Shown here piece after piece: positions 2,472 through 4,275 of a stretch of 4,275 nt of DNA (position 1 is its first letter; every line of letters starts with the position of its first letter). Under the pieces are notes generated by a model that saw only the letters and a list, made by a program, of their open reading frames with translations, made no database searches and was not told the DNA's origin. This DNA comes from a virus (Duplodnaviria; Heunggongvirae; Uroviricota; Caudoviricetes). Position numbers and translations under genes: made by a program. The stretch is taken from IMG/VR virus record IMGVR_UViG_2671180432_000004; one strand, written 5' to 3'.

Positions 2472-2502
2472 TTGACCAGACACATTGTCCGGGGCTATAT
2501 TC
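2472..2502 (+). promoter_or_regulatory. Candidate late promoter (pR'-like) immediately downstream of Q
   Basis: TTGACC (2472-2477) begins 5 nt after the Q stop, with TATATT (2497-2502) as the -10. The spacer is 19 nt, which is suboptimal. The position matches where pR'/qut lies in lambdoid phages. Confidence 0.3.
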
Positions 2503-2560
2503 CTCACGCGCCAGCAAAATCTGGCGTCGGGATTGGAACCCCGGATAGAGACCGCGACAG

Positions 2561-2587
2561 ACACACGCCGCGAGCGTGTTTTTTATT
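2561..2587 (+). terminator. Candidate intrinsic terminator (tR'-like)
   Basis: Hairpin ACACGC (2563-2568) / GCGTGT (2574-2579) with loop CGCGA, followed by TTTTT-A-TT. It lies about 60-80 nt downstream of the candidate promoter, which would give a short leader transcript. Confidence 0.45.
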
Positions 2588-2712
2588 GTCGTATGCACGC
2601 GCACATCTGAATTATGGTGGGGCGCATGGGGGAGCTGAAAAGCTCGCCGGTCGGTTTCCCGGTAGTTCCAACCCTGTGCGTCTCACCACCCGATGATTGG
2701 AACCTGACGGTG

Positions 2713-2741
2713 TTGACAGTTTCAGGTTTGCAGTTTACATT
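2713..2741 (+). promoter_or_regulatory. Candidate sigma70 promoter upstream of the ORF6N gene
   Basis: Perfect -35 TTGACA (2713-2718), 17-nt spacer, -10 TACATT (2736-2741; 4 of 6, with the conserved T, A and final T). Could be the promoter of the ORF6N gene or the true Q-modified late promoter. Confidence 0.4.
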
Positions 2742-2776
2742 TCCCCGCGGTGCTCAAAACACCTCGAAAGCGGTAT

Positions 2777-2804
2777 CCACACCCGATAGCCATGTGGTTT
2801 TTTT
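2777..2804 (+). terminator. Weak hairpin plus T7 tract (possible attenuator or terminator)
   Basis: CCACA (2777-2781) pairs with TGTGG (2793-2797) across an 11-nt loop, followed by seven T (2798-2804). The stem is weak, hence low confidence. Confidence 0.2.
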
Positions 2805-2947
2805 GTGTCCAGAATTCTTGGTTTATGACCGGGTGTGCGGCTAATACAATACCAGCAATGGAAATACGCCCGCCGACTTTCGACGGTTTTGAGCGCCCGG
2901 TCACCCTCTCAAAAGGGGTAAATCAAAATATTCGAAAGGACATGTCT

Positions 2948-3511
2948 ATGAATCGCACGTCTATTGAAAAACTCCCGTCACTTACGCATAACCATCTTCC
3001 TGTCATGACAACAGAGCTGCTGGCTGATTTGTACGGAACAGAGCGCCAGCGTTTGACAAACAATTTCAATCGAAACAAAGAACGGTTTATAGAAGGTAAA
3101 CATTTTTTCCTGATAGAAGGTGATGCGTTACGAGAGTTGAAGAACGAAAACTCTTTAAGAGTTTCTGTGAAAATTGCCCGTAACGTTCGCTCCCTCATCC
3201 TCTGGACAGAACGTGGCGCAGCCCGTCACGCCAAAATGCTCGAAACCGATCAGGCGTGGGAAGTGTTCGAAAAACTGGAAGACTGTTATTTCAACCAGAA
3301 ACAGCCACCAGCGGCACAAAACACATCTATCGAAAATGATGGATGCGCATTACTGAGCCACTTCGATAAACACGGTCAGGTTGAGTTCACGGAAAAGGTA
3401 CCCGCCGATGCGATGGTATGTACTCTGGAACGGTTTAAATTTTATCTGGAGCAACACGGGTGGATCGTTGCCCGTAAAGAGCAACTGGTGGAGCGGTTGA
3501 TGCGGTTTTAA
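2948..3511 (+). CDS. ORF6N/KilA-N-like domain protein (phage accessory 'moron' gene; antirepressor-like family), function unknown
   Basis: ORF with AGGA 7 nt upstream of ATG 2948 (ATG 2942 is an alternative). The N-terminal half (LPVMTTELLADLYGTERQRLTNNFNRNKERFIEGKHFFLIEGDALRELK...LWTERGAARHAKMLETDQAWEV) fits the ORF6N domain pattern as I recall it. The C-terminal 70 aa are unassigned. Spot counts give about 41% GC in the first 240 nt versus about 57% in a sampled helicase stretch. Followed by a strong intrinsic terminator. Confidence 0.7.
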   Translation: MNRTSIEKLPSLTHNHLPVMTTELLADLYGTERQRLTNNFNRNKERFIEGKHFFLIEGDALRELKNENSLRVSVKIARNVRSLILWTERGAARHAKMLETDQAWEVFEKLEDCYFNQKQPPAAQNTSIENDGCALLSHFDKHGQVEFTEKVPADAMVCTLERFKFYLEQHGWIVARKEQLVERLMRF

Positions 3512-3542: not shown

Positions 3543-3587
3543 AAGTTGAATATCCTGTTAAGAGTGGTTACTACGCCACACAGCTTA

Positions 3588-3612
3588 AACCCGCCGATGA
3601 GCGGGTTTTTTT
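3588..3612 (+). terminator. Rho-independent terminator downstream of the ORF6N gene
   Basis: Stem CCCGC (3590-3594) / GCGGG (3601-3605) with loop CGATGA, extendable by A:T pairs, then a 7-T tract (3606-3612). Canonical intrinsic terminator structure. Confidence 0.7.
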
Positions 3613-3700
3613 ATACCTGAAAAACGGCACAGGACGTTAAACGTGCTGGTGGTCAGATGAGTTTGCAGATGTGATGACATATGGTTATTATTCTGCCTCC

Positions 3701-3777
3701 GGCCCTTTAGCTCAGTTGGTCAGAGCGAGCGACTCATAATCGCCAGGTCGCTGGTTCAAGTCCAGCAAGGGCCACCA
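3701..3777 (+). tRNA. tRNA with CAU anticodon, most likely tRNA-Ile2 (lysidine; ileX/ileZ-like), automated tools would call tRNA-Met(CAT)
   Basis: Cloverleaf folded by hand: acceptor GGCCCTT (3701-3707) / AAGGGCC (3767-3773), anticodon loop CTCATAA with CAT at 3735-3737, T-loop TTCAAGT, discriminator A and encoded CCA (3775-3777). Nearly identical to E. coli ileX as recalled. Confidence 0.85.
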
Positions 3778-3778
3778 A

Positions 3779-3855
3779 CCACCACTAGCTCATCCGGATA
3801 GAGCATCAACCTTCTAAGTTGACGGTGCGAGGTTCGAGTCCTCGGTGGTGGGCCA
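3779..3855 (+). tRNA. tRNA-Arg (anticodon UCU, reads AGA)
   Basis: Acceptor CCACCAC (3779-3785) / GTGGTGG (3845-3851) is a perfect 7-bp stem. D-stem GCTC/GAGC, anticodon stem TCAAC/GTTGA, loop CTTCTAA with TCT at 3813-3815, T-stem CGAGG/CCTCG with loop TTCGAGT, discriminator G, encoded CCA (3853-3855). Only 1 nt separates it from the previous tRNA. Confidence 0.85.
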
Positions 3856-3857
3856 GC

Positions 3858-3933
<76 letters not shown>

Positions 3934-3936
3934 TAT

Positions 3937-4011
<75 letters not shown>

Positions 4012-4045
4012 GCGAGATTTGAGACGAAGGTTGTTATTTGCACTG

Positions 4046-4059
4046 ACACAATATTGTGT
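4046..4059. repeat. Perfect 14-bp palindrome ACACAATATTGTGT
   Basis: Read directly from the sequence, about 35 bp downstream of the tRNA cluster and about 130 bp upstream of an open frame that starts at ATG 4189. Confidence 0.45.
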
Positions 4060-4275
4060 GGGAATGTCTGACTCCTTACCATCTCCTGTTCTGTGATGTT
4101 GTTTTGTTGCAGTTCCAGTGCTCTTTTTTCAGCACCAGAATGGTGCATTGTCGGTCAGGTTACGTAGTGAACCTCTGGCAGGGGACTGATGATTCATCAT
4201 TCTGGTGTTGTAAATATCTCTTCGGACAACTTACAAAATATTCTAAGCAAACCCCGGGAACACACTCTTAACTGC

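Follow-up and report, generated by a model that had tools for sequence, protein, structure and literature searches.

The window analyzed here, a 4,275-nucleotide stretch of viral DNA (IMG/VR record IMGVR_UViG_2671180432_000004), carries on its plus strand at positions 3779–3855 a real, intact tRNA-Arg(UCU) gene whose acceptor stem is closed by a C1:G72 pair. The pair has been inherited within a lineage that maintains it structurally, and it is neither a lesion nor a quirk of one gene. We consider it probable that the gene encodes a working elongator tRNA-Arg(UCU), carried by a prophage and belonging to a C1:G72 lineage of argN type in the lambdoid phages of Escherichia and Shigella, and that pair 1:72 is neutral for charging.

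Fold, register, and intactness of the gene

The features of the gene are as follows.

3779..3855, plus strand: tRNA-Arg(UCU) with an argN-type body, C1:G72, G73, and an encoded CCA (ARAGORN; RF00005, 56.4 bits)
3779..3785, plus strand: 5' acceptor strand CCACCAC, with C1 at 3779 and, at 3781, A3, the derived base of a compensatory 3:70 change
3798, plus strand: A20, the major ArgRS determinant (rule from PMC9976931), in the D-loop AUCCGGAUA, whose length and GGAUA motif are as in argU
3813..3815, plus strand: anticodon UCU (U34 C35 U36); its loop, CUUCUAA, is that of argU
3845..3851, plus strand: 3' acceptor strand GUGGUGG, with U70 at 3849 and G72 at 3851, followed by the discriminator G73 at 3852
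3853..3855, plus strand: encoded CCA (from the sequence)

ARAGORN called a tRNA-Arg with anticodon tct at exactly 3779–3855 on the plus strand, and the covariance model RF00005 (gathering score 29) aligned end to end to 3779–3852 with a score of 56.4 bits, E = 1e-10, a posterior of about 1, and no non-canonical pair flagged. Read from the sequence, the gene runs CCACCAC-UA-GCUC-AUCCGGAUA-GAGC-A-UCAAC-CUUCUAA-GUUGA-CGGUG-CGAGG-UUCGAGU-CCUCG-GUGGUGG-G-CCA, a class I cloverleaf of 77 nt with stems of 7, 4, 5, and 5 bp that scores higher than the curated Rfam cutoff. Watson–Crick pairing holds at all seven acceptor positions and in all 21 pairs across the four stems, with neither a mismatch nor a G.U pair, and the universal nucleotides U8, A14, G18 G19, A21, U33, G53 U54 U55 C56, A58, C61, and the 3' CCA are all present. 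An identical 77-nt gene is labeled "tRNA-Arg" by PGAP/RefSeq in 10 complete E. coli genomes and bears no pseudogene flag. The preliminary description had held that CCACCAC/GTGGTGG is the only acceptor pairing that fits, which sets C1:G72 and G73; sequence, ARAGORN, and RF00005 show this to be exact, and the covariance-model check that it proposed returned neither a G1 alternative nor a pseudo-tRNA.

A mis-registered cloverleaf, concealing a true tRNA with a conventional G1, has practically no probability. Positions 3772 to 3788 contain no G, the nearest upstream G (3771) lies within the preceding tRNA, and the base at position −1 is an A (3778), which is unable to pair with G73. The covariance-model alignment is unique, and no second tRNA alignment appeared at E<=1 in an Rfam scan of 3770–3865. 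ARAGORN, the covariance model, and the thermodynamic fold all give the same acceptor stem, and the homologs keep an identical register. Lacking a G and having a single covariance-model alignment, the region leaves no place for an alternative register or fold beginning with G1, and this candidate was rejected. The minimum-free-energy fold recovered the acceptor, D, and T stems and missed the anticodon stem (z = −1.75), but such folding is uninformative for a tRNA.

One position departs from the usual pattern. The Levitt pair, expected to join a purine at 15 to a pyrimidine at 48, is U15:G48 here and throughout the C1 lineage, against U15:A48 in relatives and G15:C48 in argU and argO. The 15:48 rule is not strict, as E. 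coli tRNA-Cys has G15:G48.

The RF00005 scores of the genes compared were as follows.

Window tRNA-Arg(UCU): 56.4 bits, the highest in its lineage and the lowest of the four tRNAs in its cluster
933W argN: 54.8 bits
2851 argN: 43.0 bits
UUU/C33 allele: 40.4 bits
PPompW copy with a D-stem deletion: below threshold
Host argU: 72.1 bits
Host proM: 65.8 bits
Host leuT: 48.5 bits

The score of the window gene falls inside the range of bona fide K-12 tRNAs (48.5–72.1 bits).

Rarity of C1:G72 in the host group

Among the 86 tRNAs of E. coli, the first base is G in 67, U in 8, A in 4, and C in 7 (Mohanty et al., PMC8860583), so the earlier statement that most bacterial tRNAs begin with G1 is borne out. 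The seven that start with C comprise three proline tRNAs and four initiators, the latter unpaired at 1x72, and across 1,546 bacteria C1-G72 accounts for about 5% of tRNAs, all tRNA-Pro included (PMC8860583). When host genes were compared directly, argU, argX, argQ/V, and argW of K-12 all had G1:C72, the pair common to the four arginine isoacceptors of the host (argU, argX, argQ/V/Y/Z, and argW), which C1:G72 replaces in the window gene. Thus, C1:G72 is atypical for an arginine tRNA in the E. coli host group. The proposal that it is a phage-specific feature proved sound in the sense that the pair marks one lineage of lambdoid-phage tRNAs, including argN, and is absent from host tRNA-Arg genes.

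In the K-12 sample, C1:G72 was confined to proK, proL, and proM, and A73 accompanies it in all three. They are the only host elongator tRNAs that, like the window gene, close the acceptor stem with this pair; they differ from it in the discriminator (A73 versus G73) and in the anticodon (G35 G36 versus C35 U36), and they are not related to it in sequence, their identity to lineage members being about 58–64%. Of the ProRS determinants, the window gene has G72 only, with A73, G35, and G36 absent. A disguised or derived tRNA-Pro was therefore rejected, given these absences and the identity of about 60% to proK/L/M.

Cluster and prophage context

The gene is the second of four tRNA genes, and its surroundings contain the following features.

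27–1466: replicative helicase gene (annotation of matches and ORFs)
1720–2091: RusA-family resolvase gene (annotation of matches and ORFs)
2060–2467: Q-family antiterminator gene (annotation of matches and ORFs)
2495–2910: immI-like RNA module (c4-a1b1, isrK, C4, and sRNA-Xcc1 matches)
Ending at 3511: ORF6N antirepressor-like gene (annotation of matches and ORFs)
3587..3615, plus strand: hairpin and T-run resembling an intrinsic terminator, closing the upstream Ant (ORF6N) unit (8-bp stem at 3587–3608, then TTTTTAT)
3663..3691, plus strand: sigma-70-like promoter TTGCAG-17 nt-TATTAT (promoter scan), ending 9 nt before the first tRNA
3701..3777, plus strand: CAU tRNA, Ile2 (ileX/ileZ-like), first gene of the cluster (ARAGORN; RF00005, 70.5 bits)
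3778, plus strand: A at position −1, the one nucleotide that separates the CCA of the CAU tRNA from C1 of tRNA-Arg (from the sequence)
3858..3933, plus strand: tRNA-Thr(UGU), almost the same as host thrU (ARAGORN; 97.4% identity to K-12 thrU)
3937..4011, plus strand: tRNA-Gly(UCC), the same as host glyT (ARAGORN; 100% identity to K-12 glyT)

The CAU tRNA at 3701–3777 is 89.6% identical to K-12 ileX and is labeled tRNA-Ile by PGAP. The spacers within the four-tRNA cluster measure 1, 2, and 3 nt, the CCA of tRNA-Arg being followed by GC (2 nt). The hexamers and spacing of TTGCAG-17-TATTAT are invariant in six diverged loci (the window, FDAARGOS_944, PhiR47_1, PPompW, 2851, and 933W), and we infer that this motif is a dedicated promoter of the tRNA cluster, as predicted from sequence.

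The region around the cluster is a lambdoid prophage. Positions 3601–4275 are 99.7% identical to a prophage of E. coli FDAARGOS_944 and the sequence upstream differs, which places a mosaic junction at the terminator. Against E. coli and S. flexneri prophages, the tRNA module shows 99.3–99.7% identity. In FDAARGOS_944, within a different prophage, the same cluster sits between a DUF1133-family gene and holin/lysozyme genes; because of this second setting, we regard the module as a mobile cassette heading the late region.

Membership of the argN-type lineage

Comparison with the argN and argO genes of Stx phages, which the preliminary description had suggested, gave a divided answer: the likeness to argN held, in that the C1 body is common to both, and that to argO did not, as argO is an unrelated G1 tRNA with the same UCU anticodon and only 60% identity. 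In the Stx phages 933W, 2851, and Stx2a_F451, argN is a tRNA-Arg(UCG), the second gene of ileZ-argN-argO, and it is annotated as "argN" in NC_049924. Its ends read CCGCCAU.../...GUGGUGG-U-CCA in 2851 and CCGCCAU.../...AUGGCGG-U-CCA in 933W, with anticodon UCG in both. The bodies of argN and the window gene are homologous (83% identity for 2851, 79% for 933W); common to them are C1:G72, the CCRCCAY acceptor strand, the D-arm, the UUCGAGU T-loop, and U15:G48. The T-stem of the window gene equals that of 2851 argN except for the A51.C63 of the latter, whereas 933W argN differs at several T-stem positions. Both genes lie 1–9 nt after a CAU tRNA and behind the same conserved upstream promoter motif. 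They differ in the anticodon (UCU for AGA/AGG in the window, UCG for CGA/CGG in argN), in the discriminator (G73 versus U73), in pair 3:70 (A:U in the window, G.U in 2851, G:C in 933W), and in what follows slot 2, namely tRNA-Thr and tRNA-Gly in the window and argO, then stx, in the argN clusters.

The window gene thus shows the C1:G72 pair, the CCRCCAY acceptor strand, and the common D-arm and T-arm sequence of the lineage, and it occupies slot 2, 1 nt 3' of a CAU tRNA and behind TTGCAG-17-TATTAT, whereas its anticodon is UCU and not the UCG of strict argN. As judged from these features, it is a new UCU allele of the known argN-type lineage rather than a strict argN. A literature search on argN, ileZ, argO, or C1 in phage tRNA-Arg found nothing relevant.

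The two other UCU readers resemble the window gene in a different way. Host argU matches it in the anticodon, the loop CUUCUAA, the D-loop length, A20, GGAUA, G73, and the 77-nt class I form; argO of the Stx phages matches it in the anticodon, the D-loop length, A20, G73, and the 77-nt class I form, with GGACA instead of GGAUA and an anticodon loop that is CUUCUAA in 2851, as in the window, and CUUCUGA in 933W. The three presumably perform the same decoding job. Unlike the window gene, argU and argO have G1:C72 and the canonical G15:C48, and in the acceptor, anticodon, and T stems they show no sequence relationship to it. Identity to the window gene is 75% for argU, its closest host tRNA, and 60% for argO. 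Equivalence with argO was ruled out by this low identity and by its G1, and recent capture of host argU was ruled out by 75% identity against the 97–100% of the Thr and Gly neighbors to their host genes.

The breadth of the lineage was surveyed with an IMG/VR pattern scan (T-arm plus acceptor, with G72 fixed in the pattern), which retrieved 120 prophage or phage contigs. With 7 exceptions among the 123 loci scored, the family tRNA is the second gene, directly after a CAU tRNA, and the exceptions lack a called CAU tRNA next to it; most copies have a 1-nt A/G spacer to the preceding CAU tRNA. The anticodons are UUU (always with C33, and the commonest in the IMG/VR sample), UCU, UCG, and a 78-nt UAU-like form with A33. 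The exact window allele accounts for 22 tRNA calls among the IMG/VR contigs and the E. coli FDAARGOS_944 locus, and besides it there are four more UCU alleles, in which position 73 is A or G. The slot-2 "tRNA-Lys(UUU)" alleles of PhiR47_1 and PPompW belong to the same lineage (84–86% identity) and share C1:G72; the PhiR47_1-type cluster is the same four-tRNA set, and that of PPompW comprises CAU, Lys(UUU), and Arg(UCU). They differ from the window gene in C33, U35, U73, and A51.C63, and they score 40.4 bits or go undetected.

An IMG/VR scan requiring a non-G base at position 72 yielded no real family members. When a base other than C was required at position 1, two U1.G72 copies were found within the family, as well as phage relatives, also tRNA-Arg(UCU), that have G1:C72 or A1:U72; the wider group includes Salmonella phage NX263 (A1:U72) and Klebsiella phage ST16-OXA48phi5.2 (G1:C72). 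In an alignment of 19 relatives, hand-picked and mutually related, so that the figures illustrate a pattern and are no formal test, pair 1:72 is CG in 10, GC in 6, AU in 2, UG in 1, and unpaired in none. Across that alignment 98.5% of cells are paired, and double changes occur in 14 of 21 pairs, well above shuffled and slid controls. That related phage tRNA-Arg genes carry C:G, G:C, A:U, or U.G argues that the identity of pair 1:72 is free to covary. Set against the remaining UCU alleles, that of the window has undergone a compensatory double change from G3:C70 to A3:U70, and 2851 argN displays the G.U state. Such paired changes, here and in the alignment, speak for selection on pairing.

The UCU alleles, that of the window included, have no stem mismatches, U33, and a purine discriminator. 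The UUU alleles and 2851 argN have the A51.C63 T-stem mismatch and U73, with C33 in the UUU alleles, and singleton UUU variants are damaged further, by U8C, by mismatches in the D-stem, or by deletion of one D-stem base. Because these sister alleles look degenerate (C33, A51.C63, D-stem deletion, U8C), loss of function in slot 2 appears to be frequent. The same damage (C33 or A33, the T-stem A.C, the D-stem deletion that drops below threshold, and U8C) would fit a window gene that is itself a non-functional or decaying relic hitchhiking with its neighbor tRNAs, C1:G72 being one of several departures; some annotations omit sister alleles, U15:G48 is unusual, and the window allele is rare. We nevertheless consider such a relic very unlikely. 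The window allele is free of lesions, with every one of its 21 pairs Watson–Crick and each universal nucleotide checked in place, and it combines the compensatory 3:70 change with a full arginine identity set and the top score in the lineage. The sequence is retained unchanged in both E. coli and S. flexneri, with several prophages of one genome carrying it, and in host tRNA-Pro C1:G72 is nothing out of the ordinary. No other member of the argN-type lineage is as clean as the window allele.

Arginine identity and probable role in decoding

The bacterial arginine identity set consists of A20 (the major determinant), C35, U/G36, and A/G73, and pair 1:72 lies outside it (PMC9976931). The window gene has the full set: A20 at 3798, C35 and U36 within 3813–3815, and G73 at 3852. 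Because ArgRS does not use pair 1:72, C1:G72 is most likely neutral for charging. The suggestion that the pair bears on ArgRS recognition was accordingly not upheld, as 1:72 falls outside the identity set (PMC9976931), all four determinants are present, and phage relatives vary at this pair. With its determinants in place, the tRNA would be charged by ArgRS through A20, C35, U36, and G73.

Codon use was counted per 1,000 codons in 16 CDS of the FDAARGOS_944 prophage, which carries the identical cluster, and in 41 K-12 genes; the baseline is thus a 49-kb sample of K-12, a strain other than the window's own host, probably a Shigella or EIEC.

AGA: prophage 8.6, K-12 sample 1.2
AGG: prophage 6.6, K-12 sample 0.7
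AUA: prophage 16.6, K-12 sample 2.5
ACA: prophage 15.2, K-12 sample 5.4
GGA: prophage 12.4, K-12 sample 6.1

AGA and AGG are about 7–9 times commoner in the prophage genes than in the K-12 sample, AUA, ACA, and GGA are the codons of the three neighboring tRNAs, and each tRNA in the cluster reads a codon ending in A that the prophage over-uses. The most likely role of tRNA-Arg(UCU), as far as its anticodon and these counts indicate, is the decoding of AGA and AGG: it would read AGA, plus AGG by wobble, both rare in the host and enriched in the prophage. That Stx-phage tRNAs supply readers of rare codons was proposed decades ago.

A different purpose would be counter-defense, in which a body diverged from argU (inverted first pair, different anticodon stem) provides a spare tRNA that survives tRNA-targeting nucleases or toxins. 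The contrast between 75% identity to argU and 97–100% identity of the Thr and Gly neighbors to host genes is in keeping with it, and the UUU alleles in slot 2 of other prophages, with an independent thrU-derived UUU tRNA, would fit pressure from a nuclease against tRNA-Lys. There are precedents: infection is rescued from the PARIS defense by T5 tRNA-Lys (PMC11464382) and from the P2-OLD defense by a phage tRNA-Thr(UGU) (PMC12445682), and a general role of phage tRNAs against tRNA-cleaving defenses has been proposed (PMC10264068); work on retrons, too, makes such a role conceivable. We give this explanation little credence. The loop CUUCUAA is the same as that of argU, so nucleases that read the loop would not be evaded. 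Colicin D is one nuclease that cuts arginine tRNAs in the anticodon loop. A literature search found no E. coli defense nuclease specific for tRNA-Arg(UCU) or reading pair 1:72, and the strong enrichment of AGA and AGG in prophage genes already explains the gene.

Proposed maturation of the cluster transcript

If the gene is the functional elongator that we favor, the sigma-70-type promoter would co-transcribe it with its three neighbors, RNase P would cut the 5' end of each tRNA, and exonucleases would trim the ends to the encoded CCA. A cut by RNase P at each 5' end is suggested because the cluster spacers are only 1–3 nt long. C1 substrates, tRNA-Pro and tRNA-fMet among them, are processed normally by RNase P. 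In an analogous case, the tightly spaced tRNAs of some E. coli operons are cut apart by RNase P alone (reviewed in PMC8860583).

C1-directed cleavage by RNase E is a possible consequence of the first pair that the preliminary description had left unconsidered. In E. coli proline pre-tRNAs, C1 directs RNase E to cleave immediately after the CCA (PMC8860583), the single effect of C1 documented in that species. Were the same to hold here, C1 would alter maturation, releasing the tRNA from the cluster in one step, without trimming by RNase T/PH and with escape from polyadenylation; this would be an addition to the favored explanation and not an alternative identity. In tRNA-Pro, changing C1:G72 to G1:C72 moved cleavage 1–4 nt further downstream and brought dependence on RNase T/PH and polyadenylation, whereas altering the downstream sequence had no effect on cleavage (PMC8860583). 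In the window, the CCA of tRNA-Arg lies only 2 nt (GC) from the next tRNA, and C1:G72 is nearly invariant in the argN-type lineage. On the other side, the effect has been demonstrated for proline tRNAs only, and the study could neither tell C1 apart from the whole 1:72 pair nor carry the effect over to pheV, whose mutant was inviable (PMC8860583). The G1 tRNAs of the same cluster have equally short spacers, and G1 or A1 versions exist among related phage tRNA-Arg genes. Overall, we regard RNase E maturation of this tRNA as unlikely.

We hold as distinctly improbable a broader proposal, in which the C1:G72 body would be a phage "chassis" whose first pair is itself functional, through Pro-like, one-step 3' maturation by RNase E or invisibility to enzymes acting on the acceptor end, and whose anticodon has been re-targeted repeatedly (UCG, UCU, UUU, UAU-like), the window gene being the AGA/AGG version fixed in Shigella/EIEC prophages.

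Significance and distribution

Taken alone, a well-formed prophage reader of rare codons is of little weight. The C1 start is of broader use as a lineage marker, since argN-type tRNAs can be recognized by it whatever their anticodon, including alleles labeled tRNA-Lys or left unannotated. The gene also offers a natural non-proline case of C1:G72 for the question of C1-directed RNase E cleavage left by PMC8860583.

Of 5,426 complete E. coli genomes, 16 carry the 77-nt allele (10 exactly, 6 at 96–97%), nearly all of them human-derived; each has 1–5 copies (median 3), making 42 places in the 16 genomes. Such multi-copy carriers (S. flexneri and a small number of E. coli of human origin) may have a larger supply of tRNAs reading AGA, AUA, ACA, and GGA, which could favor the expression of AT-rich horizontally acquired genes. 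None of the complete E. coli genomes covered more than 69% of the window, and among 50,697 deposited phage genomes the 77-nt allele was absent, the best match being 85.7%. A match to Burkholderiales in a scan of GTDB species representatives was dismissed as chance, as it lies inside GC-rich non-tRNA sequence. In that scan the family was confined to E. coli and S. flexneri, and the window allele occurred twice in each.

Anticodon variation within a single tRNA lineage

In the second tRNA position of the phage cluster, a single homologous tRNA body with a C1:G72 pair was found, the anticodon of which varies between prophages. The comparison covered L002 1589-1665, phage PPompW (L003 1589-1664), phage 2851 (L004 1579-1655), L165 601-677, and the IMG/VR loci L005-L124.

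Alleles of the second-position tRNA
UCG anticodon: argN
UCU anticodon: the window tRNA-Arg
UUU anticodon: annotated as tRNA-Lys; C33 always replaces U33; A51.C63 mismatch in the T-stem
UAU-like anticodon, 78 nt: A33

The UUU alleles are nearer to the host tRNA-Arg(UCU), argU, than to lysT. This anticodon variety is a putative case of re-targeting, or of decay, inside one phage tRNA lineage. Additionally, an 82-nt tRNA-like gene, labeled "Val aac" by ARAGORN, was identified in three IMG/VR loci (L015 1469-1550, L034 3739-3820, and L074 2535-2616). It carries a C1-type acceptor (CCGUCAC/GUGACGG-U-CCA) and a T-arm as in the C1 lineage, while its anticodon arm is disrupted; it appears to be a further decayed relative of that lineage.

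Acceptor stem and tertiary pairing

G3.U70 is the major identity element for AlaRS. This pair was observed in the acceptor stem of phage 2851 argN (L004 1579-1655) and of the PPompW allele (L003 1589-1664); the corresponding pair is G3:C70 in 933W argN and A3:U70 in the window tRNA-Arg. It is possible that some Stx-phage argN alleles are mischarged with alanine. Throughout the C1 lineage, the Levitt tertiary pair is U15:G48 (window positions 3793 and 3827, respectively), an unusual pyrimidine15:purine48 combination; the comparison tRNAs have U15:A48 (related G1 phage tRNAs) or G15:C48 (argU and argO, the G1-type tRNA-Arg(UCU) of Stx phages).

At window 3771-3785, the junction reads CCACCAA|CCACCAC, such that the last bases of the first tRNA, together with the spacer, nearly duplicate the 5' strand of the tRNA-Arg acceptor stem. 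This near-duplication occurs only in the window allele, the other alleles having CCGCCAC, and is probably a coincidence.

Threonine and glycine tRNAs of the cluster

Within window 3858-4011, the tRNA-Gly(UCC) gene matches K-12 glyT at 100% identity, and the tRNA-Thr(UGU) gene shares 97.4% identity with thrU. The host has tyrU between these two genes, and the phage cluster looks like a captured thrU-tyrU-glyT operon minus tyrU. P2-OLD has been reported to degrade the host tRNA-ThrU, causing the death of lambda-infected cells (PMC12445682). Because the CUG/CAG motif is retained in its anticodon stem, the window tRNA-Thr is probably still cleavable by P2-OLD on the criteria of that study.

The third position, otherwise a thrU copy, holds a tRNA with a UUU anticodon in five contigs, including IMG/VR L047 3480-3555, L070 5501-5576, and L088 6852-6927. 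This tRNA carries G35U and A26G and represents a second, independent path to a UUU anticodon on a non-Lys body. PARIS AriB cleaves in the anticodon stem of tRNA-Lys (PMC11464382); that the third-position UUU tRNA might be related to tRNA-Lys-cleaving defenses is pure speculation.

Elements upstream of the cluster

Strong Rfam matches to P1/P7-type immunity RNAs were obtained at window 2495-2910.

Immunity RNA matches in the window (Rfam)
2495-2547: c4-a1b1 targets
2508-2584: isrK, 77.5 bits
2610-2693: C4 antisense RNA, 71 bits
2827-2910: sRNA-Xcc1, 77.4 bits

They lie immediately upstream of an ORF6N antirepressor-like ORF, which places a predicted immI-like anti-immunity module downstream of the Q gene and ahead of the tRNAs. 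Immediately 5' of the first tRNA, the motif TTGCAG-17 nt-TATTAT was located at window 3663-3691. The motif does not vary among six diverged lambdoid loci, 933W and 2851 among them, although its flanks do; this suggests that the tRNAs have a promoter of their own, one that does not depend on Q-mediated late transcription.

Distribution of the UCU/C1 allele

The UCU/C1 allele was detected in 16 of the 5,426 complete E. coli genomes, nearly all from humans, with 1-5 copies per carrier (median 3), and elsewhere only in S. flexneri. The sister four-tRNA cluster of the UUU type is far commoner: in 603 genomes, a cluster matches the query over 80% or more of its length.
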